A stretch of DNA of 63,639 bases, filler included, from Chrysochromulina tobinii (GCA_001275005.1; 8 parts of 8 records of this genome joined end to end with filler, not necessarily neighbours in it); one strand, 5' to 3'; shown: positions 2,131 through 60,911, counted from the first letter of the whole stretch. A program made the numbers and translations. The notes: generated by a model from the letters alone, not told the origin.

Positions 2131-5100
2131 TCACGATCGCATGCCCGCCGACATGAGCGGATGGCTCACCCCGTGCACGCGCTCGTACTCGGAGACCCCG
2201 GCGACGAAGGTGGCGGCGGCACGCCCAAGCGGGCGCTGCACCAGGTGCTCACCCTCGAGCAGCTTGGCCAAGGGCACGGGCGGCAGCTCGGGGAACTGCC
2301 GATGGATCTCGGAGAGGACTCGAGGCGCGTCCGCCTCGAGGAGCACCTGCCACAGACGATCCTCCCTGGCAGAGTCGAGGAGGAGGACGAGGGTCACCAC
2401 GGACGCATAGAGCGCCTCGTCGCGCACGTTGCGCGGCGGCGTGCCCGCGACGACGCTCGATAGGCGCGCCAGCTCGCGTGCGACGGTGCAGTCGCGCTGC
2501 AACGCGCTCACGAGCTGCTCGAAGAGCCTCGGCTTCGTGTGCCGGTGGGTGAGCACGGCTGCCAGCATCCTGAGCCCCTCAGAGCGGAGTGCCATACCCT
2601 TGTGGAACGGCACGAAAGTTCCGGGCAGCTTGATGAGGGGCAGCTCGAAGGTGCGCGTGTCGGGCAGCGCGCCGAGGAGGATGAGACGATCGACAGCATC
2701 GCTCGCCTCGATCTGCTGCCCAAGCACGCTCGGATCGGCGAGGAGCGCCTGCCACAAGCTGAGGCGCGCCTCGCGGCCGGCGGCGTACTCTTGCAGGAAG
2801 AGCTTCGGCACGCGCACCTGTGGGGAAGCAAGGGCGCCATGGTGAGCGTTTGCATGCAAGGCAGGAGGAGCTTCGGCACGCAAGGGCGCCATGGTGAGCG
2901 TTTGCATGCAAGGCAGGACGAGCTTCGGCACGCAAGGGCGCCATGGTGAGCGTTTGCATGCAAGGCAGGAAGAGCTTCGGCACGCGCACCTCGAGGCCGA
3001 GGCACGAGGCGAGCTCGAGTTGGCCGCGCTGCAGGTACTCAATGGCCATGCGCCCGAGCTGAAGCTTCTCGGCGAGGCCGGCGAGGGGCGGTGCCGTGGG
3101 CAGTTGGGGCAGCAGCAGCGAGCACAGCAACTCGAGGGCCGATCGCTGTAGCCGGAGTAACGGCATCTGCGCCACATCGGAGAGCACTGGGGGCGGCGAC
3201 ACGAGCGCACTATCTCCCGAGCCGAGATCCAGCGACGGTACGCCAGAGGCGAGCTGGCGAGGCGGGATGGCGCCCGCCGCGAGCGCCGCGCGCGCGATCC
3301 ACGCGACTGCGCCGGTGCGCACCAGCAGCTCGAGAGGCGCCACCTCAGCGGGCGCCCGTACCACCCCGGCTGCTTGGAAGAGACGAAAGCATGCCTGCAC
3401 CGCCGCCTCCGCCGCCTGCTCTGACGCTCGCGCCTCCGCGGCCGCTCGCGCCTCCGCGGCACCTGCCTTCTCCCACGTGCCGCTGTTCGCGCTCAGGGCG
3501 CTCGCGCTCACGACGCTGCGAGGGGTGCTGGCAGCGGCCGGGGCGGCCTGGCTCGAATGCTCGCGAGGCGTCATCCCGGGTGTCGTCACCGCCCCGCCAC
3601 GCGGCGAATCGTACAGCGGGTGAGGGCACGCATAGCCTGCCCGCTCGAGCGGGTTGGACAGCATCGCCGCGGGCACCCACGGGACCGTCGCGCTCGCCGG
3701 CGCGAGATCGCCATCTCGCTTGCCGGGTTTGGGGCGCGGCGCTGCCACGGGCAGCTCGCCGAGCGCGCGCCGCACCTGATCTCGCTCGGCGGCCGCTTGG
3801 AGCGTGCGCAGCGAGCGCTCGGCACGACGCACGCCAAGGGCGAGGGTGGCATGCAGGTAGGCGCGTTGGGAGGCGGCGTCGCCGCGGTGGTGGCCCCACG
3901 GGAGGCGCAAGCAGCTGCCCGCATGCAATAGGAGCAGGCGCTCCGCGCTCGCATCCAGAGGGCCATCGAGCTCCATCTCGCTCATGACCTCAAACTCGAG
4001 GTCACGCCGTATGGCCGCCTCGCGATGTCGCGCCGTCTCGAGCGCACTCGAGCCCCCGGGCTGCTGCCCCAACGCCGCCACGGCCGACAGGTTGCTCACG
4101 GTCGACTTTGGGGGTGCCACGTCACCCAGAGCCACGGGCGGCGGGCGCGGTGGCAGCGCGAAGGTAATTGGCTCGGGCGGTAGGCCATGGTCGTCGCCCT
4201 CGGCGACGAGCGTCGCGCGCGCGCGCGTGCCTACGACGGCGAGAGTCGGCGGCGGCGGCAGCTCGAGCCCCAGATCGAGCAACTTCTGACGAAGTGGCGT
4301 GCGCGCGTGCAGGTACTCGAGCGCCGGAGGTACTCCCTCGGCCACCACGCGCTCGAAGATGGCCCGCACGCCAAAGTCGACAAGCTGTTGGGCATCGGGC
4401 ACGCGCGTGGGCATGATGAGGTGCATGAGCCCGCCCCACACGTTGGCGCGCTGCATGGCCACGTGCACCTCGGGCTGGTCACTGAGCGCGAGCAGCCCGA
4501 AGAGCTCAACGCACTTCTCGCGCACGGCAAGTGCCTCGGCCGCGTCGTGCAAGGGTCGCGAGAGCGCGGCCATCATCGCATGCTGAGAGAAGCAGCCGTA
4601 GAGCATCGCCGTCGCCTCGGCCGACGCCGCCTCGAGCGCCGTCGCGGGCGCCGAGCCGCCACCGTCCAAACTCGGCGCCCGCGACGGCGCGCCACCGTCC
4701 AAGCTCGGCGCCCGCGACGGCGCGCCACCGTCCAAACTCGGCGCCCGCGACGGCGCGCCACCGTCCAAGCTGGGGCCGTGCTGGGAGAGCTTCGCAATGC
4801 GGACGAAGAGCTCGAGCGCCGCTGCGCGCACGCCCGCGTCGGCGTCCGAGAGGGCGGGGAAGGCGTGCTGCGGAACCTCGAGCTGCGCGCACATCCGGAT
4901 CCCCGGCTTGCGCCGCAGCATGCCGCCCAGGTGCGTGAGCGCGGTGCACTTGGGCGCGTCGTGCCGCGGCAGCGGCAGCGGCGGCATCCGAGGCGGCCTT
5001 GGAGCCTGACGCTGCAGAGTCGGAGGGCGGCGCGCTCGGATGGAGCCCGCACAGGCTCGCGAGCGCGGGGAGCAGCTCGGCACAATCGCCGCGCGTCAGC

Positions 5101-5604
5101 GTTGGGGGGGCGAGCAGCGTACGTGCCACCACACTCGACGCGCCAGCGCCAGCGCGGTGCGTGGTCTTGCCCAGGGCCGTCGCTCCGGCGGCGTCGGCAG
5201 CCTCGGCGGCCGCGGCAGCGTTGGCGGCTTGCAGCGCTTGGCGCAGCGAGGGGAGCGAAAAGGAACCAGTGCCGTCCTCGCCCAGCATGGCTTCGAGCAC
5301 TGGCTGCAGCGCCGCATGCAACGAAGGAGTCCATCGGTGCGAGCCATCGGGCGCATACGCGCGCCACGCAGCGCGCGGCGTGCTCGCGTCATGCACGAGG
5401 CTGGCGTACAAGGCCGCCGCGCCCGCCGACGACGGCGTGCAGTCCGCTGAGTCGTCCGAGATCGCCCGAGATGTCCGAGAGTTGCCCGAGATGTCGAGCA
5501 GCTCGCCACTCATTCCGCCGTCGAGTAGTGACGCGCCCGCGGGGCTTGCGCTCAGCCGGACGATGACGGACGCCGGGAGCGTCGTGGGGGGCGGCAAGGT
5601 GCCT

Positions 5605-5636
<32 letters not shown>

Positions 5637-15936: not shown

Positions 15937-16036
15937 NNNNNNNNNNNNNNNNNNNNNNNNNNNNNNNNNNNNNNNNNNNNTTAATTAATTAANNNNNNNN
16001 NNNNNNNNNNNNNNNNNNNNNNNNNNNNNNNNNNNN
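15937..16036. other. Artificial contig spacer (N44-TTAATTAATTAA-N44). Identical spacers at 28062-28161, 44327-44426, 53935-54034, 56269-56368, 59113-59212 and 62295-62394
   Basis: Seven identical 100-nt N blocks with a central linker that has stops in all frames. Adjacent contigs are therefore not genomically linked. Confidence 0.98.
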
Positions 16037-23000: not shown

Positions 23001-25288
23001 CGGTCCTCCGGCGCGAGATTGCGCAATACGACGAGGTCAAGGGGCAGATTGGCAGCGCGACGGAGGCGGCGACTGCTGAGCGCACGCGGCTCATGACGGA
23101 GCTCAACGTAGTGCTCGCCGCGCATGAGGCGGCGGCGGCGCGCCACGCGGCGGATGTGGAGGCGGTGCAGTCTGAGCATGAGGCCGCGCTGGACGATCTC
23201 GAGAAGGCGACCGAGGCGCGCCAGCTGCAACTTATTCATGAGTACGATGAGACGCTGGTAAGAGCACCCCCCCTAATTTTGTGCTCGGCCTGCATCCTCC
23301 TCCGAGCATGCATACGCTCACCACGGCGCCCTGTCCTCCCCACCCTCGACCTGAAACCCCCTCCGCCACCCCTGGCCCTGGTTGCAACCCTCCCCACCTT
23401 TTCGCATCCCCCCCCATGCCATCCCCCGTCCCTCGCAGGTGAGCGAGCGCCATCAGCGCGAGACGATGCGGGACGCGATGGCGACCGAGATCCAGAACGA
23501 AAAGTTCCAAAATTTCAACTTCCAGAAAAAGGTCTTGAAGTATGCGGAGGAGAAGCAGGCGATGGTCAAGACACTCAAGGCCAAGGAAACCGAAAGCGAG
23601 CAGCGAGTCGCCGAGGTGCGTGAGCTGCAAGCGACCATCGAGCGGATGCGCGGAGATGCGCTCGAGCGCGAGCGAAGATTGAGCGAGCTCGATAAGAAGC
23701 TGCTCGCGATGAACGGCTCGATGTCGCGGCTCGAGTCTAATAAGCAGCTGCTCGAGCTCAAGGTGAAGGAGCTCGAGCAAGTCCACGAGCCTACCCTCAT
23801 TGAGCTCAAGGAGGTCAAGTCGACCTGCAGCCGCCTCGAGGCCGAGCTAGTCAGGGAGGGCGACAGGCGCAAAGCCGCGGAGGCGCTCGTGCACGAAAGA
23901 GACAACCTGATCAGGTTCGTCAAACGAGATCTCGCAGCATCCGAGGCACAAGTCAAGGATGCGGAATTCGCCCATGTCATCACCATCAACAAGCTCTTCG
24001 GCCTCATCGACGAGCGCGCTGCCTGGACGACGGTTGCGGACTTTGCACGAGCGCGGGACCAACAGGTTCGTCAAGACCAGAGCCGCAACGGCAGGCCACG
24101 TGTCGACAAGTCCGAAGCACAGCTCGACGAGGATGACAAGGTGCGCCAGGAGCTGCTGCGCCAGCGCGACAAGATGCACAAGCAGGTCGAAGATCTCGAG
24201 GCCGAGCTCAAGCGTGCCCGGGCCCAGGGTCGTGCCTCGACCATGCGCCTCTCTGATGAGGCGCTGCGCGCGCATGACCATCTCAACGAGGCGCGGCGGC
24301 AGGTGAGTGACAAGGACCGCGGACCTCCCCACACCTCCTCCCACACCTCCCCACACCGCCCCACACCTCCTCTCACACCTCCCCACACCTCTTCACACCC
24401 CAGCTCACGAGCCTCGCATGACACCCTCATCCGCCCCTGATCGCCGCCCTGCGCCCTTGCCTGAATTGGCAGGTGCCTGAGCTCCAGATGACATCTGATG
24501 ACCCCTGATGACATCTGATGACCCCTGATGACATCTGATGACATCTGATGACCCCTGATGGCCCCTGATGACCCCTGATGACCCCTGATGACATCTGATG
24601 ACTCCTTGATGACATCTGATGACCCCTGATGACATCTGATGACCCCTGATGACAGGTGCATGAGCTGCAGGAGAAGCTCGCGATCGCCTCGAAGCAGCTC
24701 GCGCTGCACGAAGAGAAGGCCAAGGGCTCTGGCGGGCACTCGCGCCATGGCGGGCGGCGCGTGGCGCGAGGAAGCGCGGGCCTCGCCCCTTCGGCGCTCA
24801 GTTCGGCGCTCGCCGCGGCGGAGCATGCGGCACTACAGCAGCAGGCCGAGGCGGTAGCGGCGGCCGTGGCGGCGGCGAGCGAGGACGAGGCGGCGATGAA
24901 CGAGGTTTCCACCGCTGCCGCGCGAGGTCTCTCGATGAGCAATACGTTGCCGGGCTTCCATCGCACCTTCCATCGCACCGGATCGCCTGACGCAGCCGAC
25001 GACCGGCCGCAGACCGCTCCGCCACCGATTGCACCGTTGGCCAGCGTGCCGGCGCCGGCGACCTTGAGGCCGCCGCTCGCCGCACCGGCGCTCAAGCTGC
25101 CGCCGCCGCCAGTGGCAATGCCGCGCGAGGCCCCTCTCGAGCTCACGGCTCTCATGGAGCGCCACGTGATCGAGAATCAGAAGCTGCGCGAGCAACTGCT
25201 CTTCTTCACGAGCAAGGCGTCCAATCCCGTCCAGAAGAAGCTGAGTCGCTCTGCCTCCAGCTTGGGCATGCCACTGCCGCCCGTCTGA
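20010..25288 (+). CDS. CFAP57: CFAP57/WDR65-like flagellar protein (N-terminal WD40 propellers, long C-terminal coiled coil)
   Basis: AYSHGGHLLAASSGNHVLVF…LSGHLAPITALAWAADDAAFSTGGADGMVYTW and LESNKQLLELKVKELEQVHEP resemble CFAP57. Four ORF blocks join in phase 0 through introns 21777-21925, 23258-23438 and 24303-24655. Confidence 0.8.
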
Positions 25289-28061: not shown

Positions 28062-28161
28062 NNNNNNNNNNNNNNNNNNNNNNNNNNNNNNNNNNNNNNN
28101 NNNNNTTAATTAATTAANNNNNNNNNNNNNNNNNNNNNNNNNNNNNNNNNNNNNNNNNNNN

Positions 28162-30903: not shown

Positions 30904-31061
30904 GTTGCAGATTTCCAGATTTATCAAGTTCGAGTTCCGATGAAGTTAGCGCGCTCTGTCGAGGCTTTACGGTTAACAACTTTCGGCCCATCAGTCAGTT
31001 GGTGAAGCTCTGTAGTCTCGCATCCCGAAACAAACTATGCGCGTTGTTATGAGCGTTGACG

Positions 31062-37000: not shown

Positions 37001-37175
37001 CGCGGACGCAGCGCAGGCCAAGGTGGGAGCGGGCGGCGCCTTGAAGCGCATCCAGGCACGGGAGGGGTTCACATTCACACTGGATGAGCTTCACAGCGCC
37101 CTCGCCGAAGCGAGAGCGGAGGGGCAAGCGTGCGCCGCGGGGGAGGCTGGAGCGGTGGAGGCGGAGCGACCCTAA
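34072..37175 (+). CDS. Secreted ShKT + TPR + JmjC/cupin 2-oxoglutarate/Fe(II) dioxygenase
   Basis: Signal peptide MSLALAFVLVALG; ShKT CTDRSNECGTWAALGKC…MSKECPYSCKTSC; TPR helices. After removing introns 34971-35256, 35441-35562, 35674-35877, 35953-36093, 36179-36359 and 36518-36800 the C-terminus reads MWLG…TLHNDPWDNFLCQLQGTKHVLLWPP…LERGDCFFLPRGWHHVV…NLAINFWF (HxD…H triad). Confidence 0.85.
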
Positions 37176-37598
37176 CTTGGGAGGAGGCGAGCTTTGACTC
37201 TCGAGCCCTAATTAGGCGAGTGGGCTTCTCCGCGATGGCTGCGAGACGGATGCTCATTTGATAGGCCATGGAGTCAGACCTGGGTAGTAACCAAGGGGCT
37301 GCGGCTAGCCAGCTTGCCAGGGCGCTCTAGCCAAGGGACTAGCCACTTGGCGGCACTGAGGCCTGTCGCCTGAGTGACTTGGCGCATGGCCAATTGCGCA
37401 TGGCGGCACACTGAGGCGTGAGGGATTCTTCTGTCTTGTCTTTTTATGGACTTGTAGTCAATGGGTTTTGGATCGTGAAGAGAAAGGCGAGGGCAGGTTT
37501 ACCCGCGCCTTCCTTCGTCTACTCTACGGTGGTTCTTCACAGATGTGACTTCACACCAGAGATGACATGAGTCTCGTCTGTTCCAGTTATTGGCTGAG

Positions 37599-38790: not shown

Positions 38791-39157
38791 CGAAACTACC
38801 AGATCGCGTGATCTCAAAGCGTCTGAGGTGATGCCGTGGCATCCTTGGATGGCGGTGAATGTGATGTGTGTCACTGTCAACTGTCTTAAATCATATAACC
38901 GCAAACTCAATTGCTCAAACTCTGTCTGTGATTTCGGAACATACAGGTTACAGCACAACCGTCGCCCTTCTAAACCGCCCCCGTGCGGTACCCGCCATGG
39001 TGGTACAGTGTCTGTGTCTGTGTGAATGTGCGTCTGTGTGATTTCTTAACACAGCCGTCCCATCGGGAATGCCGCGAGTTTGGAGTTTGCAAGTTTGTGA
39101 CGCCGCGCAGCGCGAAGAAATCGCGACAGGGGCTCGACGCGACCGCGCTCGAGGCTT

Positions 39158-40250
39158 ATGAAGAACTTCTTTGGCGGCGCGAAAGGGCAAGAGGGCTACG
39201 CCACGTACAAAGAGCCGCCCAAGCCCAAAGCTGCAGCACCGGCACCGGCCGTGCCACCGCCACGTCCGTCCGCGCCAATCACCGCAGAAAAGGTAAAGTC
39301 GCCCTTCGCATACCCTCCAGCAGCCGGCGCCGCCGAACCGTCGGGGTTGGACTCTTGGACGCCGCCCGCGCCCGCGCCCGCGCCCGCGCCTGCGCCCGCG
39401 CCCGCAGCCGATCCGCAGATGGAGAAGGCCATCGCCGCGCAAGCGGAGATGCGAAAGCTTCGTCACATGAACGAAGCGGGGCCAGCGCATCGGCGGCTTG
39501 GGGAGGCGCATCCCGAGTTGCATCCGCAGCGGCTGCAGACAGAGCGTGAGATCCTTGCGGATCTGGAGGCCGAGATCCTCGATCGAGAGTGCCTGGAGAG
39601 CGAGGCTGCGAACGCCAAAGTGGAGTACGAGAACGAGCTGCGCGATCTTCTGGCCGAGGCCGCAGCCGCTTTTGAGGCGTTGCGTGCGCAGCTGCCACCT
39701 GGGGCGCTGCCCGATCCGGCGCCTACACCCGCCGTCACACCCGCCATGCCCGCCGCAGCGCCGGCCGCACCGCCTGACCTTCTCCGCGGCTTGGGCGCTC
39801 AGTACGACGCCCCGACCGCGACTCCGGTGCTCGGGACAGCGCCTCCGGCTGCGGCGGCTCCGCTCGGAGATATGTTCGGAGATATGTTCGGAGATTTGCT
39901 GGGCGGCGGCATGGGCGGCGGCATGGGTGGGGGCATGGGCGGCGGCATGCCCGGCGGCATGGGCGGCGGCATGGGCGGTGGCACTGGTGGCGGCATGGGA
40001 GGTGGCATGGGTGGTGGCGTGGGTGGGGGCTTCGGTGGAGGTTGGGGTGGTATGGCAGGCGCTGAGATGGGCGGCATGGGTGCTTCTATGGGCGGCATGG
40101 GTGGCGGCATGGGCGGCGGCACTTGTGCTATGCCGACGGCGCCCCTCCTTTCGGATCTCTTTGCAAGCGAAACGCAACCCTTCGCGACGCCCGCCACGGC
40201 GCCTTTGCCCACAACTGCGCCCGCTCGAGCGCCTCCATTGGCGGCGTCGA

Positions 40251-40284
<34 letters not shown>

Positions 40285-43200
40285 GGTGGACAGTGACGAT
40301 CCATTCGCAGGGCTCTTCTCCGGCATAGCGCCGCCGCCGGCTACGTCACCGTCGGTCCCGCGGCGAATCTCGTTAGACCGTCCCGCGAGTAGCAGCAGCG
40401 GCACTGGCGGGCTCGATCCAAATTTGGAAAGTCGGGCCGATCTCATCGCACCTACCAAATTTGGGTCAGAGATGGTCGTCAGTCGGTCGGAGGAGGCACA
40501 TACGATCACGTGTGTCGAGCAGATGGCGCCGGCGGCGCAGGTACCGACCTACCTTCCCAAGATCCCGTCCGTCCGTGCCGCGTCCCCCTTGCGACTGCAT
40601 GCATGTGCTCACCACGGCGCGTCCTCTTCCCCACAGGAGGCCATCCGAATGCTCCAAAAGGGGTGTCAGGCTCTCAAGTTTGGCAGGCAGGGCAAGCCTC
40701 ACTCGGTGCGGCGCTGCGTCCACTGAGTGCGACTGAGTGCGACTGAGTGCGACTGAGCGCGTCCGCGTGCGTTGCATGCTGATTGCCTCCCCCATTGCAT
40801 GCTGATTGCCTCCCTCATTGCATGCTGATTACCTCCCCCATTGCATGCTGATTACCTCCCTCATTGCATGCTGATTGCCTCACCCATTGCATGCAGGTGC
40901 TCTTCCGCCTGTCCGAGGACCTCCAGACGTTATCCTCATTGCATGCTGATTGCCTCCCCCATTGCATGCAGGTGCTCTTCCGCCTGTCCGAGGACCTCCA
41001 GACGTTATCCTGGGAGAAGAAGGGCCTGCAGGGTCTCGGCAAGGACATGGCGATGGGTTTCGGCAAGATGATGGGGGGTGGGTTCGCGAAGAGCGCCGAC
41101 ACGGCGCGCCGAGTCGACCTGAGTACTTTGGTGGAGGTGCTGCAGGTGCGTGCTAGCCTTGATGGCGTCTGATGGCGCACGATGGCGTCTGATGGCGTCT
41201 GATGGCGTCTGATGGCGTCTGATGGCGCCTGAGTGCGTCTCTCATCAACTGCTCGTCGTGCTTCAGGGCCCTGAGAGCAATGTCATTCGACGCAACCGCG
41301 GCGAGAAGCCGATTTCGTCCGCGGACGCGGGTGGCGGCACGGTGGAGGGCGACTACTCGTCATACAAGGAGGCCAAGGAGAACTTGTGCCTCTCGCTGCT
41401 CTTCGTGAGCAACGAGAAGGATGCAGACCGTGACTCGCTCGATATCCAGTGAGAGAGCGACGAGGGCTTTGCATGATGATTGCATGCTGATTGCATGCTG
41501 ATTGCATACTGATTGCATGCTGATTGCATCTTTGAGCACATGCTGATTGCACCCTTCATCAGGTGCGAGAGCGACGAAGCATTCATCAGCTGGGTCGTGG
41601 GGTTCCAAGCCCTCATGGCGCTGCATGAGGCGCTGAGCGGTGGGTTCGATGCGCTCTCGAGCGTGCTGCATGCTGATTGCATGCTGATTGCATGCTGATT
41701 GCATGCTGATTGCATGCTGATTGCATGCTGATTGCATGCATGCTGAGCGGTGGGTTCGATGCGCTCTCGAGCGTGCTCTCTGAGTGCATGCTGATTGCAT
41801 CTCTGAGGACGTGCTGATGGCCCCCTTCATCAGGTGGGGCTGAGGGGCTTGCGAGTGTCCGTGTCGAGCGCGAGGCCGCCCGTGCGCGGGCCCTCGCGCG
41901 GAGTGCGCCGCAGGTACGCAACTGATGACCTCTGATGACCTCTGATGACCTCTGATGACCTCTGAGGACCTCTGAGGACCTCTGAGGACCTCTGAGGACC
42001 TCTGAGGACCTCTGAGGACCTCTGAGGACCTCTGAGGACCTCTGATGACCTCTGATGGCCTCTGATGGCCTCTGATGGCCTCTGATGACCTCTGATGACC
42101 TCTGATGACCTCTGATGACCTCTGATGACCTCTGATGGCCTCTAATGACCTCTGATGACCTCTAATGACCTCTGATGACCTCTGATGGCCTCTAATGACC
42201 TCTGATGACCTCTGATGACCTCTGATGACCTCTGATGACCTCTGATGACCTCTGATGACGTACGCGGGCCTCGCTCGGAATGCGCCGCAGCTCTACCAAG
42301 CGATGCTGGAGCGCGAGGAGAAGCAGATGCAGCAGATGATGCGAGAGGCTGAAGAGGAAGCCAACCGGCAGTATGAGGCCTCGCGTGCGCGCGCAGAAGC
42401 GGCGGATCGTCAAGCTTTCGAAGCGAGGGTGAATGCCACTGATGACATCTGATTGCATCTGATTGCATCTGATTGCATCCCTCATCAGGTGCGTCGCGAG
42501 GCAGAGGACCTCTACTTTCCTCTTGATCGCCTTTGATGACCTCCTGATTGCCTCCCTCATCAGGTGCGTCGCGAGGCAGAGGACCAGGCGAACGCGCTGC
42601 TCGAGGCTGCTCGTAAGGAGGCTGAGCTTGCGCCGTTAGCAGGCGTCTTCGAAGGGCAGAGGTACTAAGTGCCACTGATGACGTCTGATTGCATCTGATT
42701 GCATCCCTCATCAGGTGCGTCTTCGAAGGGCAGAGGTACTAAGGAGGTTGATTGCCATCTGAGTGCATCGGATGGCCTCTGATGGCCTCTGATGGCCTCC
42801 CTCATCAGGTACCGGATGTCCGCTGATGTCCTCTGATGGATGTCCTCTGATGGCCTCTGATGACCTCTGATGACCTCTGATGACCTCCCTCATCGACTGA
42901 TGGCCTCTGATGGCATGCTGATTGCCTCCCTCATCAGGTACTATGGAGGCGGCTCAATGCCCCTCGGGCTGCCTGATCCCTTCTCTCCAGGCCTCTCGTC
43001 CGCAATGGCGGCGGCGGCGGCGGCGATGGCGGCGGGAGATCCGTCCGCCATGATGGCTCTCCGCGCGAGATTAGCCGAGGTTGAGGAGGAGAACCGACGG
43101 TTACGCGCCAATGGCGGCGGGCGGCGTGGGGGGGGCGGCGGCGTCGAAGAGGAAGAAGACGAGCAGGTTGTGCTCGATCGCAAGTGCTTCGAGGCGTATG

Positions 43201-44326: not shown

Positions 44327-44426
44327 NNNNNNNNNNNNNNNNNNNNNNNNNNNNNNNNNNNNNNNNNNNNTTAATTAATTAANNNNNNNNNNNNNNNNNN
44401 NNNNNNNNNNNNNNNNNNNNNNNNNN

Positions 44427-47400
44427 GAACTGCTGAGCCCAAGAGGCGATGGCTGCGGAGCCCGAAAAGCGAAGGCTGCTGAGCCCGAGAGGCCATAGCT
44501 GCTGAGCCCGAGACGCCGAGAGGCGATAGCTGCTGAGCCCGAGAGGCGATAGCTGCTGAGCTCGAGGGGCGAGAGCTGCTGAGCCCGAGAGGCGATGGCT
44601 GCGGAGCCCGAGGGGCGAAGGCTGCTGAGCCCGAGAGGCGATGGCTGCGGAGCCCGAGGGGCGAAGGCTGCTGAGCCCGAGAGGCGATAGCTGAGCCCGA
44701 GACGCCGAGAGGCGATAGCTGCTGAGCCCGAGAGGAGATAGCTGCTGAGCCTGAGAGGCGATAGCTGCTGAGCCCGAGAGGCGATGGCTGTGGAGCCCGA
44801 GGGGTGATGGCTGCGGGGCCCGAGTGGCGATAGCTGCGGAGCCCGAGAGGCGATAGCTGCTGAGCCCGAGAGGCGATAGCTGCGGAGCCCGAGAGGCGAT
44901 AGCTGCAACGCCCGTGCTAGCTGCTGAGCCCGAGGGGCGATAGCACCTGCTGAGCCTATGCTGAGCCCGAGATGCAATAGCTGCTGAGCCCGAAAGGCGA
45001 CAGCTGTGCTGAGTCCAAGAGGCGATAGCTGTTTAGCCCGAGAGGCGATAGTTGCTGAGCCCGAGAGGCGATAGCTGCTGAGCTCAAGGGGCGAGAGCTG
45101 CTGAGCCCGAGAGGCGATGGCTGCGGAGCCCGAAAGGCGAAGCTGCAGAGCCCGAGAGGCGATAGCTGTAGAGCGTGAGTGGCGACAGCTGCGGAGCCCG
45201 AGAGGCGATAGATGCTGGGCCTGCGAGGCGCTAGCTGCGGAACCCGAGAGGCGACAGCCGCGGAGCCCGGAGGCGATAGCTGTTTAGCCCGAGAGGCGAT
45301 AGCTGCTGTGCTCGAAAAGCGATAGCTGCTGAGCCTGAGAGGCGATAGCTGCTGAGCCTGAGAGGCGATAGCTGCTGAGCCTGAGAGGCGATAGCTGCTG
45401 AGCCCGAGAGGCGATAGCTGCTGAGCCCGAGAGGCGATAGCTGCTGAGCCCGAGAGGCAATAGTTGCTGAGCCCAAGAGGCGCTAGCTGCTGGGTCTGAG
45501 AGGCGCTAGCTGCGGCGCCCGAGAGGTAACAGCTGATGAGCCCGGGAGGTGATAGCTGCTGAGCCCGAGTGGCGATAGCTGATGAGCTCGAGAGGCGATA
45601 GCTGCGGAGCCCGAGAGGCGATAGCTGAGCCCGAGAGGCGACAGCCGCTGAGCCCGAGAGGCGATAGCTGCGGGGCCCGAGAGGCGATAGCTGCTGAGCC
45701 CAGAGGCGTGAGCTGATGAGCCCGCGAGAGGCGTGAGCTGATGAGCCCGAGAGGCAATGAGCTGATGAGCCCGAGGGGCAATGAGCTGATGAGCCTGAGA
45801 GGCAATGAGCTGATGAGCCCGAGAGGCACTGAGCCTGAGAGGCAATGGCTGAGCCAGCAGAAGATAAGAGGTGAGAGCTGAGCCAGCAGAAGATAAAGTC
45901 CCGCTGAGCCGGCCGAAGATAATGTCCCAACCGAGGGGCAATGAGCTGATGAGCCCGAGAGGGCCCGAGAGGCAATGAGCTGATGAGCCCGAGAGGCAAT
46001 GAGCCTGAGAGGAAATAGCTGAGCCAGCAGAAGGTAAGAGGTGAGAGCTGAGCCAGCAGAAGATAAAGTCCCGCTGAGCCGGAAGAAGATAATGTCCCAA
46101 ATCCCTGTTTTGGGTAGGGTGGGTGGGTAATCAGTCAACTGCCGAACCCTGATGCGCTATGCGAGGCTGCTGGGTAGTCAAGGCTGTCGTCCCATTGGCC
46201 GTCAACGAAGAGGAGCCTAGACAGGCTCGGTCAAGGGCGGGCGGCATGGCTGAGCCCGAGAGGCAACAGCTATTGCTGAGCCCAAGAGGCTTAGCTGCGG
46301 AGCCCCGAGGAGCGCTAGCTGCGCAGCCCAAAAGGTACTAGTTGCAGAGGCTGAGAGGCAATAGCTGCGGAGCCCGAGGGGGCGATAGCTGCGGAGCCCG
46401 AGATGCGGTAGCTGCGGAGCCCAAGAGGCGGTAGCTGCGGAGCCCGAGAGGCGGTAGCTGCGGGGCCCAAGTGGTGCTAGCTGCGGAGCCCGAGAGACGC
46501 TAGCTGCGGAGCCCGAGAGGCCCGGTAACTGCGGTGCCCGAGAGGCGGTAGCCCGAGAGGCGCTAGCTGCGGAGCCCAAAAGGCCCGGTAACTGCGGAGC
46601 CCGAGAGGCGGTAGCTGCGGAGCCCGAGAGGCGATAGCTGCGGAGCCCGAGAGGCGATAGCTGCTGAGCCCGAGGGGTGGTTGCTGCTGAGCCCGAGGGC
46701 GGTAGCTGCGGAGCCTGAGGGGCGGTAGCTGCGGAGCCCGAGAAGCGATAGCTGCGGAGCCCGATTGCAAAGCCCGAGAGGTGAAGCTGCAGAGCCCGAG
46801 AGGCGACCGAGAGGCGATAGATGCCGGGTCTGCGAGGCGCTAGCTGCGGAACCCGAGAGGCGATAGCTGCGGAGCCCGGAGGCGATAGCTGTTCAGCCCG
46901 AGAGGTGATAGCTGCTGTGCTCGAAAAGCGATAGCTGCTGAGCCTGAGAGGCGATAGCTGCTGAGCCTGAGAGGCGATAGCTGCTGAGCCTGAGAGGCGA
47001 TAGCTGCTGAGCCCGAGAGGCAATAGTTGCTGAGCCCAAGAGGCGTTAGCTGCTGGGTCTGAGAGGCGCTAGCTGCGGCGCCCGAGAGGTAACAGCTGAT
47101 GAGCCCGAGAGGCGATAGCTGCTGAGCCTGAGTGGCGATAGCTGATGAGCTCGAGAGGCGATAGCTGTGGAGCCCGAGAGGCGATAGCTGAGCCCGAGAG
47201 GCGACAGCTGCTGAGCTCGAGAGGCGGTAGCTGTGGGGCTTGAGAGGCAGTAGCTGCGGAGCTCGAGAGGTGATAGATGCGGAGCCCGAGAGGCGGTCGC
47301 GAGTGGCGATAGCTGCGGAGCCCGAGAGGCAATAGATGCTGAGCCCGAGAGGCGGGGAGCCACAGAGGCGATAGCTGCGGAGCGCGAGGGGCGATAGCCG

Positions 47401-50400
47401 CGCCTTGTAGCCGCGGAGCGCTAGGGGCGATAGCTGCAGAGCGCGAGGGGCGTAGCTGAGCCCGAGAGGCGCTACCCGAGAGGCGATAGATGCCGAGCCC
47501 GAGAGGCGATAGCTGCGGAGCCCGAGAGGCGATAGCTGCGGAGCCGGAGAGGCGATAGCTGCGGAGCCCGAGAGGCGATAGCTGCGGAGCCGCGAGAGCT
47601 GATATAGGCTACGGAGCCGCGATAGCTGAGCCTGAGAGGCAATAGCTGCCAAGCCTGAGAGGAGGTAGCTGATAAGCCCAAGGGCCATAGTTGATAGCTT
47701 AACCGGAGAGGTGATTGATGCTCAGGCGCACTCAGGCTCACTCGGGCGCACTCATGAGGCAAGCTGCCAAGCCTGAGAGCCCGAGGGCAAAAGTTGATAG
47801 CTGACTCGGGCGCACTCATGAGGCAAGCTGCCAAGCCTGAGAGCCCGAGGGCAAAAGTTGATAGCTGAACCTGGGCGCACTCAGGCGCAATCGGGCGCCT
47901 TAAGGCGTCACTCAGGCATCACTCGGGCGCACTCAGGCGCACTCGGGCGCACTTAGGCGTCGCTCGGAAAAGCCTAACGCGGTCAGCGAAGGCAGCCTTA
48001 AGGCGTCACTCAGGCATCACTCGGGCGCACTCAGGCGCACTCGGGCGCACTTAGGCGTCGCTCGGAAAAGCCTAACGCGGTCAGCGAAGGCAGAAGCCAA
48101 TCGCTGTCGACCTTTGGGCGACACAGCATGGGTCCGTACGGACGCTGTGCGCTTGGTACGTGGGCTGCGAGGCAGCTCTGTCCTTTTCACGGAAAGGACG
48201 CATCAGCCGCGGGTTCTCAGGTTGGCTATGCTGGGCATCAGCTGCGGGTTCTCGGGTTGGCTGCTGGGCAGCGTGCGTGCTCAGCGCAGTGGGGCGACTC
48301 TGGTCCTTTTCAGGTTCGAGTGCTTCCGCCTTGGGCGGTGGCTCGGGCGTCGCAGCTAAGCTGCGCGCGGGCCGGAGGCTGCATAAGCTGCTAGCCAAGT
48401 GCGCATAAGCTGCGAATGGGCTGGCTCGAATTCCGATTTTTCAGGTATTCGAGTGCTGCCGTCACGTAGGGATGGCGCAGTATATCGCATGCAGCTTGGG
48501 TCAGCCAGGGACGCTGCATGCTAACCGGAGTTTGGCGGGCCTGTGAGATGCAGGCGGTGCCACAGAGTGATGCCAGGCATGGTACTCGATCGCTGTCGGG
48601 GCGCAGGGGTGAAGGCGCTTGAGGCGATCGTGTCCGTATTGACCGGCACTGTCGTATCCTCCACAGTCACCGTAGGGGGCTTGGAGAGGCTCTGTTAGAG
48701 GTGGGCGGCGGCCATCGCCTGAGCTTGGGTCAGCCAGGGACGCTGCACGCTAACCGAAGTTTTGGCGGGCCTGTGGGGCAGGCGGTGCCATGTACCAGCA
48801 CCGATAGATTGTGCGGCCGTGGTGCTCGATTGCCGTCGGGGTACGATATTGTGCAGCCGTGGTGCTCGATTGCTGTATGTGCCAAAGGCCTGAGATGCAA
48901 ATCGGGACACTGGGAGATGTGCGGGCAGCTAGCTGCGCCTCCGAGGCGATAGCTGATCCCAAGGGGCGATAGCTGCAGCTGAGCCCAAGAGGCGAAAGCT
49001 GCTGAGCCCAAGAGGCAATAGCTACTAAGCCCTATCAGCGATAGCTGCCGAACCCGAGAGGCAATAGCTGGAGGCGATAGCTGTAGCTGAGCCCCAGAGG
49101 CGTTAGCTGCTGAGCCCAAGAGGCGATAGCTGCTGAGCGTAAAGGAAATGCTGCTGAGCCTATTGAGGCAACAGCTGCTGAGCCCGTCAAGGTGATAGCT
49201 GCTGAGCCCATCAAGGAGATAGCTGCTGAGCCCATCAGGGCCATAGCTGCTGAGCCCATCAAGGCGATAGCGGCTGAACCCACCGAGGCAATAGCTGATG
49301 GACCCGTCGAGGCTATAGCTGCGGAGCCTGTCAAGGCAATAGCTGCTGAGCCCGTCGAGGGCTTTGATGAGACGTCGAGGCGAGAGCTGGCAATAGCTGT
49401 TGAGCTGCTGAGCCCGTCGAGGCGATAGCTGCCCGTCGAGGCGATAGCTGCTGAGCCCGTCGAGGCGATAGCTGCTGAGCCCGTCGAGGCGATAGCTGCT
49501 GAGCCCGTCGAGGCGACAGCTGCTGAACTGCTGAGCCCGTCGAAAGGCGATAGCTGCCGAGCGGCTGAGCTCGTTGAGGCGACAGCTGCCGAGCTGCTGA
49601 GCTCGTCAAGGTGACAGCTGCTGAGCTCGTCGAGGCGACAGCTGCTGAGCTGCTGAGCTTGTCGAGGCGACAGCTGCTGAGCAGCTGAGCCCGTCGAGGC
49701 GATAGCTGCTGAGCTGTTAAGCTCGTCGAGGCGATAGCTGTTGAGCTGCTGAGCTCGTCGAGACGATAGCTGCTGAACTGCTGAGCTCGTCGAGGAGATA
49801 GCTGCTGAGCTGCTGAGCTCGTCAAGGCGACAGCTGCTGAGCTGCTGACCCCGTCGAGGCGATGGCTGCTGAGCTGCTGACCCCGTCGAGGCGATAGCTG
49901 CTGAGCTGCGGAGCTCGTCGAGGCGATAGCTGCTGAGCTGCCGAGCTCGTCGAGGCGATAGCTGCTGAGCTGCTGACCCCGTCGAGGCGATAGCTGCTGA
50001 GCTGCTGACCCCGTCGAGGCGATAGCTGCTGAGCTGCTGAGCCCGTCGAGGCGATAGCTGCCGAGCTGCTGACCCCGTCGAGGTGATAGCTGCTGAGCTG
50101 CTGAGCTCGTCGAGGCGATAGCTGCTGAGCTGCTGAGCTCGTCGAGGCGATAGATGCTGAGATGTCGAGGCGACAGCTGGCGATAGCTGCCGAGACCGTC
50201 GAGGTGATGGCCGCTGAGCCGCTGAACCATCAAAGCGGCTGAGCTGCCGAGCCTATCGAAGCGACAGCTGCCGAGCCTATCGAAGCGACAGCTGCTGAGC
50301 CCATCGAGGCGACAGCTGCTGAGCTGCTGAGCCCGTTGAGGCGATAGCCGCTGAGCTGCTGAGCTCGTCGAGGCGATAGCTGCTGAGCTGCTGACCCCGT

Positions 50401-53400
50401 CGAGGCGATAGCTGCTGAACTGCTGAGCTCGTCGAGGCAATAGCTGCTGAGCTGCCGTGCCCGTCGAGGCGATAGCTGCCGAGCTGCTGACCCCGTCGAG
50501 GTGATAGCTGCTGAGCTGCTGAGCTCGTCGAGGCGATAGCTGCTGAGCTGCTGAGCTCGTCGAGGCGATAGCTGCTGAGCTGCTGAGCTCGTCGAGGCGA
50601 TAGATGCTGAGATGTCGAGGCGACAGCTGGCGATAGCTGCCGAGACCGTCGAGGTGATGGCCGCTGAGCCGCTGAACCATCAAAGCGGCTGAGCTGCCGA
50701 GCCTATCGAAGCGACAGCTGCCGAGCCTATCGAAGCGACAGCTGCTGAGCCCATCGAGGCGACAGCTGCTGAGCTGCTGAGCCCGTTGAGGCGATAGCCG
50801 CTGAGCTGCTGAGTCATGGAGGTGATAGCTTTGCCCGTCGAGGCGAGAGCTGGCGAAAGCTGCTGAGCCTGTCGAGGCGGTAGCTGCTGAGCCCGTCGAG
50901 GCGAGAGCTGCCAAGCTTCTGAGCCCGCCGGGGCGATAGCTGCCAATCTGCTGAGCCCGTCGGGGTGATAGCTGCTGAGCTGCTGAGCCTGTCGAGGCGA
51001 TAGCTGCTGAGCTGCTGAGCTCGTCGAGGCGATAGCTGCCAAGCTTCTGAGCCCGTCGGGGTGATAGCTGCCAAGCTGCTGAGCCTGTCGGGGTGATAGC
51101 TGCTGAGCTGTTGAGCCCGTCGAGGCGACAGCTGCTGAGCTGCTGGGCCCGTCGAGGCGATAGCTGCTGAGGCGGTACCCAGGCGAAGGCTGTGGCGATC
51201 CCTGAGACGACGCCCGAGACGATGCCCGGGGTAACGGCCGCAACGGTGTCCAAGGAAAGGTCGCGGCGATGGGGGCGACAGCTGAGGATAGCTGGGATGA
51301 TGCCCGAGGCAACGGCCAGAGGGATGAGGCGAGAGCTATGGCGAGGCGCCGGCTGTGGCAATAGCTGCGGCGATGGCTGCGGCGAGGGCCAGGGCAGTGG
51401 CCAAGGTGACACGAGGTTAGGCTCAAGGCGACGCTCGAGGACGACGATAGGATGACGAGGCGATGCCCGAGGCAATGATTGGGGTGGTGGCCGAGGCAAT
51501 GGCTGTAGCGAGGCACAAAGTGGTGCCCAATGCGCTGGCTGTATGCCTAAGGCGGCGACCGAGGCGACTGGCGAGGCGAGTTCCGAGGTGATACCCGAGG
51601 CGACCCGAAGCCATGCCCGAGGAACTGGCCAGAGTGATGGCCGGGCTAGACCGGTCCTCAAAGACGCCGTGGAGATCCGCAACAGAGGCCACCGCTGTGG
51701 TCTCCAACGACAAATGGAGTTCCAAACGTGCAAAGACGGGACCAAGTCCCCAGCGGGTAAGATGTGCTCAACGAAGAAGGATAAAGAGCCTCCCAATTGC
51801 GGCGATGGACCCGAATGAAGAACCGATCATCGAGAGCGGAGTCATTCTCATGAAGGTGGCCGCCGCAAAGGCGCAAGAATACTCGATGGGCAGAAAAGAG
51901 CAAGCTGCCCAACGGAAGATGCAGTCGACAGAGCCCACAAAACCGGCGTCGGAGCAGCAGCCCTCTGGAGGGTATGAGTGGCGACGATGCGGCGCGATGG
52001 TATAGAGATAATGTCCCTGTTTCGCTGAAAAGTCGCCGAACACGCGAACGTGTGTTGGCCCTGACTGCTGCGCTGAGAGCTTCGTGGGGTTGCTCTTGGG
52101 AGCGCCGCCATTTCGTTTTGGCAAGACAGAGATGCCTGGGCGGGACGAAACGTCTGCCGGCGAAACGTTTCACCGGGGCGCCCAGCAGGGCCCTGCCCCC
52201 CCCGTTGGATGACGTTTGGTATGGTCTCACACCGTTGGTGTATGTGTGCCCATGCGATAGAGACCGATAGTCTCGGTTGGTTCTTGTAGGCACACACCAC
52301 TGATCGGATATCAACCCTGCCCAGCGGGTGCTCAGCCAACGGGTGGAGCGCTCTCCCACCGTACCCTTCGGCTGGCTGCGGAAGCGAGCCTTGCCCGCTC
52401 TGGTACCTCACTCGCCGGGGTTACCTTCACCCCAGCCCAACCGCCCTTCACTGTTAACTCGCTCCTCGGCGAGAAGACAAATCTGACGCAGAAGAAACCT
52501 TCTCGTACGTGAGCTCGTTAAGGGATTGAATGTTTAGAAAGCCGCGGGTGCTCGCCATGGCGCGAGCCCCCCTATGGTCCCTGTTGGTCGAGCGCGTCGA
52601 GCGGCTTGATAAGCAAAAGAGAGCTCGTTTGGAGTGACTTGGCCAGTGGGAGGGCAGAACCCGAGAGGATAGGGCCTAAAGGGTAGTGGCAGAGCCCGAG
52701 AGGCAGCAGAGCCTGAGAAGCGATAGCCGAGCCTGAGAGGCGATAGAGACCGAGAGGCAATAGCTGAGCCCGAGAGGTGATAGAGCCCCAGAGGCGATAG
52801 AGCCCGAGAGGCAATAGCTGAGCCCGAGAGGTGATAGAGCCCCAGAGGCGAAAGCATCGCTTGATAGCAGAGCCCGAGAGGCGATGGAGCCTGAGAGGTG
52901 ATAGCAGAGTCCAAGGGGTGACAGAGCCTGGTAGGCGATAGCAGAGCCGGCGAGGCGATAGAGCCCAAGAGGCAATAGCAACGCCCGAGCGCTATATAGA
53001 GCCCGACAGGCGATGTGGCGGAGCCTGAGAGGCGACGGAGCCCAAGAGGCCTTTGAGCCCAAGGCGCCAAGGGGCGGTAGCGAAGTCCAAGAGGCTATAG
53101 AGCCCGAGAGGAGACAGCAGAATCCGAGAGGCCATAGAGCCCAGAGGGGCGACAGGAGAGCTCGAGGAGACGGAGCCTGGAGAGAAGTTCGCAGAGCCAG
53201 ATAGGTAGAGAGCTCGAGAGGCAATAGAGCCCGCGGGCCAATAGCTGAGCCCGAAAGGTGAAAGCTGCTGAGCCCAAGAGGCGGTAGCTGCTGAGTCCCA
53301 CAGGGGATAGCTGCGGAGCCCAAGAGGTGATAGCTGATAGCTGCTGAGCCCAAGAGGTGATAGCTGATAGCTGCTGAGCCCGAGGGGCAATAGCTGCTGA

Positions 53401-53934
53401 GCCCGAGAGGCGATAGCTGCAGAGCGCGAGTGGCGATAGCTGAGCCCGAGAGGCGATAGCAGCTGAGCCCGAGAGGCGATGGCTGCTGAGTCCGAGAGGC
53501 GACAGCTGCTGAGCCCGAAGGGTGATAGCTGCTGAGCCCGAGAGGCGATGGCTGCGGAGCCCGAGAGGCGATAGCTGCTGAGCCCGAGAGGCGATAGCTG
53601 TAGAGCGCGAGTGGCGACAGCTGCGGAGCCCGAGAGGCGATAGATGCTGGGCCTGCGAGGCGCTAGCTGCGGAACCCGAGAGGCGATAGCCGCGGAGCCC
53701 GGAGGCGATAGCTGTTTAGCCCGAGAGGCGATAGCTGCTGTGCTCAAAAAGCGATAGCTGCTGAGCCTGAGAGGCGATAGCTGCTGAGCCTGAGAGGCGA
53801 TGGCTGCGGAGCCTGAGAGGCGATAGCTGCTGAGCCCGAGAGGCGCTAGCTGCTGAGCCCGAGAGGCGATAGCTGCTGAGCTCGAGAGGCGAGAACTGCT
53901 GAGCCCAAGAGGCGATGGCTGCGGAGCCCGAAAA
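44427..53934. repeat. Complex minisatellite/satellite contig: ~23-nt unit GAGCCCGAGAGGCGATAGCTGCT and a 24/32-nt variant GAGCCCGTCGAGGCGATAGCTGCT(GAGCTGCT), with short unique islands
   Basis: Hundreds of degenerate units. Type A spans ~44427-47650 and ~52650-53934; type B spans ~49180-51170. All long ORFs here are translated repeats (QQLSPLGLSSYRLSGSAAIASR). Confidence 0.93.
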
Positions 53935-54034
53935 NNNNNNNNNNNNNNNNNNNNNNNNNNNNNNNNNNNNNNNNNNNNTTAATTAATTAANNNNNNNNNN
54001 NNNNNNNNNNNNNNNNNNNNNNNNNNNNNNNNNN

Positions 54035-56256: not shown

Positions 56257-56531
56257 CGTTCCCCCTTTNNNNNNNNNNNNNNNNNNNNNNNNNNNNNNNN
56301 NNNNNNNNNNNNTTAATTAATTAANNNNNNNNNNNNNNNNNNNNNNNNNNNNNNNNNNNNNNNNNNNNTGTGTAGTCCTGTTACGATGTGTTGTCGTAGA
56401 CGGGGCCCGTCGGTCACACCTCCGTCCATAGCGATAGAGGCCCTCGTGCTTGGGGGCCCGGAGCGTGTGCGCGTTTGTGTTTCACAGCAGCAGCAGCGAC
56501 CGACGCGCTCTCCAACATCCCTGCCGCCGCA

Positions 56532-59112: not shown

Positions 59113-59212
59113 NNNNNNNNNNNNNNNNNNNNNNNNNNNNNNNNNNNNNNNNNNNNTTAATTAATTAANNNNNNNNNNNNNNNNNNNNNNNNNNNNNNNN
59201 NNNNNNNNNNNN

Positions 59213-60911
59213 CACTCGCGCTGTTGGCAAGCAGCTCGCGCGCCTTGGGCAGGAGCCGACGCGCGTACCTGTGGGGAAGAGAGAGAGAGAGAGAGCGGGC
59301 GGGCGCCGTGGTGAGCACGTGCAAGCAGCTCGCGCGCCTTGGGCGGGAGCGACGCGCGCACCGGCCATCGGTGCCCTTGATGTCCTTGGCCACCGCCTGG
59401 GAAATGAGCGACGAGATTTGGGGAGCGGGTGGGCCGTTGAGGCTGAGTGAACGGCCCGCGGAGAAGATCGATTCCTCAAAGAGCCCCACGTCGAGGGCTG
59501 CGAGGGCGGCGTGCTGCCATAGCTGCCAGTTGTCACTGCGCAGCGCGCACGCCTGCCGGAAGGCGTAGAGAGCCTCGCGCTTCATCTTCTGGCGCGCAAA
59601 CAAGCCGCCGAGGGACGACCATGCCTGGTAGTGTGTCGGATCGAGTGTGATCACCTTGCGCATGTCGGCGAGCGCCGTATCGAGCGCATCGAGCTTGAGT
59701 GAGCAGACCGCGCGGCAGTACCATGCCTCCGCGTAATGGCTGCGCGCGCCGAGGGCATCGGACAGGTGGGTACGGGCTTCTTCCCACTGCTCGAGGCGCA
59801 TTGCGTTCGAGCCGAGCTTGAGCTTCGCGCGCGCGAGATGCTGTTTGGAGAGGGTCCACGCATGCTCGTAGTGCTCAATCTCGCCGGTGAGATCGCCCAG
59901 GTGCATCCACATCGTGGCCGTAGGTGCCACCTCGAGCTGATGGCGCACCGCCCTGAGGCGGGGGAAGGCGGGTCTCATTAGTGGTACTCAGAGGTCACCC
60001 GAGGCCATCCGAGATCATCAGAGGTCATCCGAGGTCATCCGAGGTCATCAGAGGTCTTCGGACAACCAAGCGCTGAGGTCTCATCTTTTTTTTTTGGGGG
60101 GGGGGCAGGCGCACCTCCTTGGTTGACCCGCATTGCTTTTCGAGGTGCAGTCGCGCCTCCCAGTGCACCGGCTCATTCGGCTGGGCACTCGCGCTGTTGG
60201 CAAGCAGCTCGCGCGCCTTGGGCAGGAGCCGACGCGCGTACCTGTGGGGAAGAGAGAGAGAGAGAGAGAGCGGGCGGGCGCCGTGGTGAGCACGTGCAAG
60301 CAGCTCGCGCGCCTTGGGCGGGAGCGACGCGCGCACCGGCCATCGGTGCCCTTGATGTCCTTGGCCACCGCCTGGGAAATGAGCGACGAGATTTGGGGAG
60401 CGGGTGGGCCGTTGAGGCTGAGTGAACGGCCCGCGGAGAAGATCGATTCCTCAAAGAGCCCCACGTCGAGGGCTGCGAGGGCGGCGTGCTGCCATAGCTG
60501 CCAGTTGTCACTGCGCAGCGCGCACGCCTGCCGGAAGGCGTAGAGAGCCTCGCGCTTCATCTTCTGGCGCGCAAACAAGCCGCCGAGGGACGACCATGCC
60601 TGGTAGTGTGTCGGATCGAGTGTGATCACCTTGCGCATGTCGGCGAGCGCCGTATCGAGCGCATCGAGCTTGAGTGAGCAGACCGCGCGGCAGTACCATG
60701 CCTCCGCGTAATGGCTGCGCGCGCCGAGGGCATCGGACAGGTGGGTACGGGCTTCTTCCCACTGCTCGAGGCGCATTGCGTTCGAGCCGAGCTTGAGCTT
60801 CGCGCGCGCGAGATGCTGTTTGGAGAGGGTCCACGCATGCTCGTAGTGCTCAATCTCGCCGGTGAGATCGCCCAGGTGCATCCACATCGTGGCCGTAGGT
60901 GCCACCTCCGG
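59213..60911 (-). CDS. TTC27: Two tandem near-identical copies of TTC27/Emw1-like TPR exons (partial gene)
   Basis: MWMHLGDLTGEIEHYEHAWTLSKQHLARAK…LDPTHYQAWSSLG…ALRSDNWQLWQH resembles the C-terminal half of TTC27. Copies lie at ~60186-60911 and 59213-59936, with introns 60242-60336, 59937-60114 and 59269-59361. No N-terminal half is visible. Confidence 0.75.

Follow-up and report, generated by a model that had tools for sequence, protein, structure and literature searches.

The window analysed here, a 63,639-nt stretch of DNA from Chrysochromulina tobinii (GCA_001275005.1), has a GC content of 58–73% and carries ordinary eukaryotic genes, with Pfam matches to WD40, CK2-beta, protein kinase, fucosyltransferase, TPR, EF-hand, and DTW. 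A preliminary description of the window had noted a ca. 40-nt motif at eight intronic sites, here called cassette A, and had taken it for a dispersed introner-like module that supplies the 3′ splice site (acceptor), the 5′ splice site (donor) coming from a duplicated piece of exon. We found that cassette A is a module of ca. 40–70 nt, in which a 26-nt core that is conserved (GCATGCAAGTGCTCAYCAYGGCGCC) is followed by a pyrimidine-rich stretch that varies and by CCCCACAG at the end. RNA shows for three copies that the module is the 3′ end of an intron. It is probable that cassette A is a 3′-intron-end module that was copied into exon sites with duplication of 9–60 nt of the target, the GT of the duplicate serving as donor.

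The origin of new spliceosomal introns is a long-standing question, and its best-documented route is that of DNA-transposon introners with short fixed duplications. What differs here is duplications of 9–60 nt, microhomology at the joints, the lack of inverted repeats, and an element that barely exceeds the distance from branch site to acceptor.

Copies of cassette A and the introns that they end

A search of the window with the 26-mer GCATGCAAGTGCTCAYCACGGCGCCC, allowing up to three mismatches, gave nine matches against 0.00 expected from 100 shuffles, and the motif was present at all eight sites noted before. These matches start at 2832, 2884, 2936, 59301, and 60276 on the minus strand and at 23306, 36765, 38358, and 40597 on the plus strand. 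The 14-nt core GCTCAYCAYGGCGC with up to one mismatch was matched 14 times against 0.58 expected (largest count in a shuffle, 3). Ten of these 14 matches are cassette A copies, among them one at 36331 that was missed by the 26-mer search; those at 21683, 30179, 38291, and 52550 are without the cassette flanks. The ten copies comprise three in tandem at 2818–2989 and single ones at 59269 and 60242 on the minus strand, and copies at 23306, 36321, 36765, 38353, and 40595 on the plus strand. All ten are in the sense orientation of their host genes, and about six genes are hit. The cassette adjoins the exon directly, and the sequence just upstream of the module is a repeat of that exon's first bases. 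The introns concerned are as follows.

2818–2989, minus strand: predicted intron of 172 nt, with a 25-nt perfect exon copy, three tandem 52-nt units, and the end CCCCACAG at 2818
23258–23438, plus strand: predicted intron of 181 nt, with a degenerate internal cassette copy at ca. 23304–23345 and no exon duplication
36179–36359, plus strand: RNA-verified GC-AG intron of 181 nt, whose 3′ end is cassette A (36320–36359)
36518–36800, plus strand: RNA-verified GT-AG intron of 283 nt, whose 3′ end is cassette A (36764–36800)
38310–38397, plus strand: predicted intron of 88 nt, with a 43-nt perfect copy (38310–38352) of 38398–38440, a 5-nt filler, and a cassette ending in CCCCACAG
40541–40636, plus strand: RNA-verified GT-AG intron of 96 nt, whose 3′ end is cassette A (40595–40636)
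59269–59361, minus strand: predicted intron of 93 nt in a TPR gene (Pfam hits on the host reading frame), with an exon copy, a cassette with a (CT)n tract, and the end CCCCACAG
60242–60336, minus strand: 95-nt paralogue of the intron 59269–59361, in a gene-segment repeat offset by ca. 975 nt, with one CT unit different

Contigs of the RNA runs X1, X2, and X14, together with those of X15 (of unknown kind and collinear with the DNA), were aligned to 28162–41000. Three cassette A introns showed a joint in X1, X2, and X14, namely 36176>36358 for the intron 36179–36359, 36515>36799 for 36518–36800, and 40537>40634 for 40541–40636. The claim that the module supplies the acceptor held for these introns, in which the RNA joint falls exactly after the AG of the cassette (3/3 introns with a joint seen). 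It did not hold for the copy at 23306, which has lost its AG and lies ca. 100 nt upstream of the acceptor, inside the intron 23258–23438. At the five other cassette loci of the window, intron status is given by reading-frame continuity or by prediction.

The three RNA-verified introns differ in what precedes the cassette. In 36518–36800, the donor GT that is verified by RNA coincides with the first base of an exon-2 copy, which is split: 36518–36532 matches 36801–36815 (13/15), 36738–36763 matches 36813–36838, and ca. 200 nt of 10-mer repeats separate the two halves. The array that breaks the exon copy (36533–36737) is flanked by a 3-nt repeat (CAG), which suggests a second, later insertion or expansion within a young intron. 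In 36179–36359, the cassette is preceded by degraded copies of the end of exon 1 (36284–36301) and of exon 2 (36306–36321), with a 10-mer array before those, and splicing now uses a GC farther upstream as donor. At 40541–40636, an exon duplication was looked for at the locus and none was detectable; this copy is older or of a different origin. The exons around the intron 36179–36359 (36094–36517, plus strand), when spliced, read ...HNDPWDNFLCQLQ|GTKHVLLWPP..., which presumably resembles a JmjC/cupin-type motif; if so, a conserved domain would be interrupted by the intron.

The composition of 38310–38397 as an exon copy plus cassette, proposed in the preliminary description, was confirmed in sequence. 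This predicted intron is located after the fourth codon of an open reading frame whose ATG is at 38297. Neither a joint nor a bridging contig was obtained on 37900–39100 in runs X14, X1, X3, and X15, and one X3 contig ends at 38311. Short contigs on 38351–38391 reached a summed depth of 752 (X15), 243 (X14), and 157 (X1), compared with at most 20 alongside; they derive from other cassette-bearing loci.

Reading frames bear on the other predicted introns. Excision of 2818–2989 would fuse open frames of 137 and 173 amino acids (aa); its 25-nt copy at 2965–2989 equals the downstream exon start at 2793–2817, and its array has a period of 52, 3.0 copies, 98% identity, and a cassette A core in each unit. 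Excision of 23258–23438 leaves a coiled-coil-like frame of 307 aa open. The introns 59269–59361 and 60242–60336 each hold a ca. 41-nt copy of the downstream exon start with two mismatches and one indel, and the end of this copy, GCTTGC, overlaps the GCATGC of the cassette. The host frame stays open when 60242–60336 is excised. At 59269–59361, it is open both with the intron removed and with the intron retained, and the frame is thus uninformative there. Both introns lie at 59213–61100 (minus strand), where a TPR gene segment of ca. 975 nt occurs twice in tandem, cassette A intron included; this doubling may be a genuine duplication within the gene, or it may stem from collapse or expansion in the assembly.

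Introns of this build affect annotation, in that the start of the intron is a copy of the next exon and confuses aligners and assemblers. Examples are a joint 40704>40896 that is followed by a 40-nt repeat, and the contig stop at 38311.

The module and its family beyond the window

To the ten window copies, one scan of metagenome contigs with the pattern TGCNNNNGCTCAYCAYGGCGC added a dispersed family, with at least 139 loci matched. The figures that follow are those among the matches listed and include the window unless stated. There were 170 pattern hits, or 167 after three identical ones were dropped. By a family rule (CA before the core and the variant at four free positions), these 167 hits were split into 111 family copies, 10 of them in the window, and 56 others that lie in GC-rich, apparently unrelated DNA. 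The 111 family copies fall in 81 distinct loci, with the window counted as one. With 101 family copies outside the window, the earlier description of cassette A as a dispersed introner-like module was upheld.

Direct repeats flank the family copies. An ungapped direct repeat with a score of at least 12 flanks the core in 85 of the 111 family copies, compared with 1 of the 56 non-family hits. An AG|G end lies within 55 nt in 92 family copies. With gaps allowed, the 45-nt stretch behind the AG recurred 5′ of the cassette in 63 of these 92; among the controls, a duplication was seen in 1 of 26 hits outside the family and at 24 of 167 other AG|G sites of these loci. The donor projected from the 63 duplicated copies is GT in 47 and GC in 3, and the exon begins with GT in 58. 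The proposal that the donor comes from the duplicated exon was therefore supported for most AG-ended copies; it failed at the copy at 40597, which has no duplication. Median intron length was 81 nt. The duplication measures 9–46 nt with a median of 25 nt in the 33 cleanest copies, and up to ca. 60 nt elsewhere; over the 63 copies its median is 32 nt, as measured up to 45 nt. Perfect duplications were found in the window (W38310, 43 nt) and at metagenome loci (L004 and L026, ca. 45 nt; L094, L097, and L049, 27–34 nt). Since they are perfect in W38310, L004, and L026, the duplications of 43–46 nt suggest recent events, and a process that looks so recent could be caught in the act between strains. 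The unit of duplication plus cassette also occurs in tandem arrays, with three copies in W2818, at least five in L134, and further arrays in L131, L101, L060, and L075.

The onset of conservation is sharp at GCATGC, with 34–65% at upstream positions and 67–100% in the core, a contrast that is partly built in by the pattern and the family rule. The core is followed by a tail rich in pyrimidines (median, 19 nt), which ends in CACAG in 65 of the 111 copies and in TTAG or TCAG in a few; 17 copies lack an AG|G within 55 nt, and poly(A) was not seen. The A of CTCAY lies at a median of 28 nt upstream of the acceptor, and because this is the usual spacing of branch sites, CTCAY is the putative branch site by its distance to the acceptor alone. 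Between duplication and core there is a non-conserved filler of 0–29 nt. Five copies (L001, L016, L022, L023, and L099) share a longer leader of ca. 30 nt.

Inspection revealed no terminal inverted repeats, the ends GCATGCAAG... and ...CCCCACAG being non-complementary. The fold of the cassette was not above that of shuffles (z-scores, −0.22 to 1.46). A search of the long copies for Rfam families and tRNA-likeness gave no match beyond chance at E values up to 1, and four weak C/D-box-like Rfam matches in L107 lie on CTGATGA repeats. The preliminary description had called for a search for longer parental elements containing the motif. None was found: when the 242-nt upstream flanks of the family copies were compared all against all, just 10-mer arrays and the orthologous pair L078/L084 emerged.

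Tandem arrays of 10–11 nt (CTGATGACCT and relatives, up to 34 copies) fill introns of the window, at 36189–36289, 36532–36728, 41922–42259, 29260–29470, 61649–62017, and many more places. Each unit of these arrays combines a branch-like CTGAY with a short stretch of pyrimidines. In L107 and L112, the array motif stands before cassette A, and it resembles the cassette's long leader (…ATGGACCTCCGCCTTGCATGC).

Insertion footprint and origin of the copies

The copies that lack an AG tail bear on how the duplications arose. In L012, L016, L030, L032, L037, and L084, such copies are flanked by duplications whose first bases are not GT, and that of L037 extends across an acceptor already present. Since AG-less copies are still duplicated, the duplication appears to stem from the insertion process, which would not depend on splicing, and the GT-first cases in genes would be what selection leaves. 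Microhomology is present at the joints: the target ends in GCA, TGCA, or GCATGCA at the core in L114, L071, L111, and W59303, and the downstream repeat of L012 has, over its first 7 nt, the variant of the cassette, not that of the target. Because the duplications are long and variable, the 5′ extent varies, and microhomology is found at both joints, these footprints point to primed, templated copying rather than to cut-and-paste transposition.

In the process that we propose, a break in the target would be followed by primed, templated copying of the module. Copying could proceed by target-primed reverse transcription, with a small RNA and perhaps an excised intron as template (its 3′ end is exactly AG; this route is speculative), or equally by DNA template switching. 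The target duplication would be laid down in this step, and the GT at its start would become the donor of the new intron. In genes, only sense insertions with a GT- or GC-first duplication would splice out cleanly and so survive, and the flanking repeats would permit tandem amplification of the unit of duplication plus cassette. Reverse splicing of a whole intron was considered and rejected, since it is the local exon, rather than a source locus, that the 5′ part of the intron matches.

The main rival explanation is local tandem duplication only, in which the final 35–50 nt of an existing intron were doubled in place along with the beginning of the next exon and the likeness among loci is due to descent or gene conversion. 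The regions 35139–35294 and 40859–41011 are exactly such local duplications, in which RNA uses the downstream AG; arrays of units exist (W2818 and L134), and the 24 duplicated sites among the 167 control AG|G sites belong to the same loci. However, unique exon, with no second cassette, precedes the exon copy in W38310, L004, L026, L094, L097, and many others, a 45-nt stretch without GT cannot have been a prior intron, and the core is common to the 81 distinct loci among the matches listed, in unrelated genes. We therefore regard this explanation as improbable. Equally improbable in our judgement is that, without a dedicated mobile element, staggered double-strand breaks were repaired with errors and captured filler, as has been proposed for new introns of Daphnia, the cassette being filler that happens to splice. 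In the Daphnia footprint, the end of the adjacent exon recurs as a direct repeat at the other end of the new intron, and microhomology and variable filler suit end joining, but the Daphnia repeats are 4–12 bp and the inserts mostly unrelated. Here the median is 25–32 nt and one 26-nt core recurs in 111 copies (matches listed), where a random source of filler would give no family.

A cut-and-paste DNA transposon, that is, an introner like a miniature inverted-repeat transposable element (Micromonas, Aureococcus, Symbiodinium, and Polarella) with a duplication set by the transposase, is very improbable. This is the commonest kind of introner in print, and the splice logic is that of classes 4/5 of Symbiodinium/Polarella, in which the element carries the 3′ site and the target duplication provides the 5′ site with its first bases. 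The duplication of 9–60 nt is nevertheless not fixed, and its six-fold variation in length speaks against a transposase with a fixed stagger (3–9 nt in print); the element has no terminal inverted repeat, measures just 40–70 nt, and has a variable 5′ boundary with microhomology. Least credible of all is a conserved functional intronic motif, such as a splicing enhancer or a small RNA gene, that was kept by selection and not inserted. Although the core is far better conserved than leader or tail and contains the branch-like CTCAY, there is no Rfam or tRNA match beyond chance, the fold z-scores are −0.22 to 1.46, and selection leaves the locus-specific flanking duplications unexplained.

Several points weigh against copying of a module into exon sites, which we nevertheless consider the probable origin. 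That each cassette A unit arose by insertion is inferred from footprints alone, because no empty site, that is, an allele or orthologue without the insert, was seen. The family rule was set by us. The copies with perfect duplications are unlike one another in filler or leader and in tail, a difference that speaks against one master copy. A Pfam search of 29 window open reading frames of at least 200 aa (of 88 listed) detected neither a reverse transcriptase nor an endonuclease domain, and no longer parent element was found upstream of the copies, where 10-mer arrays are the only shared sequence. The 17 AG-less copies of 111 (matches listed) and other 3′-truncated copies fit simple target-primed reverse transcription poorly, and the 5′ filler of 0–29 nt between duplication and core is left without explanation. 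The look-alike introns without cassette A at 35180–35256, 40897–40971, and 42489–42563 are plain local tandem duplications, and part of the pattern is therefore possible without a mobile element. Finally, the splicing of 38310–38397 and the use of CTCAY as branch site are predictions.

A more specific proposal, which is tentative and on balance unlikely, is that introns reproduce by copying their last 40–70 bases (branch region, pyrimidine tract, and AG) into exons. Spliced-out intron RNA would be the template, microhomology at a break in the target would prime its copying, and the duplication, long and variable, would supply the donor. If true, this would be a transposase-free and splicing-coupled way of making introns, and it would account for most exons here beginning with GT.

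Known introners and introns with other tails

Near-identical sequence in introns of many unrelated genes, as in introners, was found for cassette A. Its copies are spliced out, as seen by RNA joints at three window introns, the others being frame-based or predicted, and the insertion footprint is a target duplication with no inverted repeat. Neither the fixed 3–9-nt duplication nor the terminal inverted repeats of DNA-transposon introners (Micromonas, Aureococcus, Symbiodinium, and Polarella types) were found. Variable duplication and variable 5′ truncation are present as in short interspersed elements (SINEs). As for the constant 3′ end with a poly(A) or simple-repeat tail that such elements have, CACAG ends 65 of 111 copies of cassette A, 17 of 111 are without AG|G within 55 nt, and there is no poly(A) (matches listed). 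No SINE-like head (tRNA, 5S, or 7SL) was found by tRNA and Rfam search, and no reverse transcriptase partner in the 29 window reading frames. Introns made by tandem duplication consist of local sequence; in cassette A introns, 40–70 nt are non-local, and the sequence is entirely local at 35139–35294 and 40859–41011. Target-primed reverse transcription, as in SINEs and processed copies driven by long interspersed elements, leaves variable and often long duplications, a variable 5′ extent, microhomology at the 5′ joint, and a single orientation. Unlike such retroposons, cassette A has no poly(A) or simple-repeat tail and no Pol III-type head that we could find, and some of its copies are 3′-truncated.

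Among published systems, classes 4/5 of Symbiodinium/Polarella glacialis are multi-copy and in one orientation, and the exon after the intron starts with GY, according to Roy et al. (10.1101/2020.10.14.339549). Their duplication has a fixed length, which is 4 nt and in classes 6/8/10 is 8 nt, and the 3′ site is where an inverted repeat ends. As in cassette A, the element gives the acceptor and the target duplication gives the donor; cassette A differs in its variable duplication of 9–60 nt, the lack of an inverted repeat, the microhomology at the joints, and an element of 40–70 nt. In haptophytes, the Emiliania huxleyi family 'fam24' is entered in Dataset S7 of Gozashti et al. 2025 (PMC12130899) as 'co-opt 5′ carry 3′' with '10bp terminal direct repeats', a span of ca. 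70 nt, GT-AG ends, and five copies. By this table description, its splice logic is like that of cassette A, and its table rows hold neither long or variable duplications nor microhomology. The haptophyte rows of the dataset cover E. huxleyi and one Pavlovales strain, and the paper's species list is without Prymnesium. The comparison with published haptophyte introners that the preliminary description had called for gave a like splice logic in fam24. New introns of Daphnia pulex (PMC4202315) are proposed to have arisen by repair of staggered double-strand breaks, with exon-end repeats of 4–12 bp and inserts that are not a sequence family. Direct repeats of the adjacent exon end are common to them and cassette A, but in Daphnia these repeats are shorter. 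Our literature search, with supplement files 13 and 14 of Gozashti 2025 outside it, found no account of long, variable, microhomology-joined duplications around a 40–70-nt intron-tail module, and searches on such introns in haptophytes gave nothing specific. Cassette A is an introner-like element with a known splice logic and a different insertion footprint.

The architecture of duplication plus tail is not confined to cassette A. A window-wide search for an AG|GY exon start that is repeated upstream gave introns with other tails at 35180–35256, 35484–35562, 40897–40971, and 42489–42563, and on the minus strand at 28661–28739, 29643–29724, and 28491–28575. The tail types are CTGATTGC/CTGATGACC...CATCAG and TTGCATGCTGA...GCAG, and these introns start with, or include, 16–40 nt copied from the next exon; the CATCAG type follows the pattern CTGATKRCCY ... 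CATCAG. In 35180–35256, 40897–40971, and 42489–42563, the same tail recurs before the exon copy, that is, the duplication runs across an existing acceptor. Tandem Repeats Finder reported 35139–35294 with a period of 77, 2.0 copies, and 92%, and 40859–41011 with a period of 75, 2.0 copies, and 98%. RNA contigs use the downstream AG at 35180–35256 and 40897–40971.

Among the RNA-verified introns at 32–41 kb, the next exon starts with GT in six of nine, which is the footprint expected if most introns arose with a donor derived from a duplication. The GC-AG introns 36179–36359 and 35953–36093 are backed by RNA contigs, and GC donors are therefore in regular use in this organism.

Two further features of the window lie apart from these introns. 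At 44430–53931, ca. 9 kb of degenerate tandem repeats of 23, 24, and 32 nt (unit ca. GCTGAGCCCGAGAGGCGATAGCT, more than 100 copies) show strong GC and AT skew and contain long minus-strand open frames with no Pfam match. Seven masked blocks, all consisting of 44 N, 12 bases, and 44 N, were located at 15937–16036, 28062–28161, 44327–44426, 53935–54034, 56269–56368, 59113–59212, and 62295–62394.

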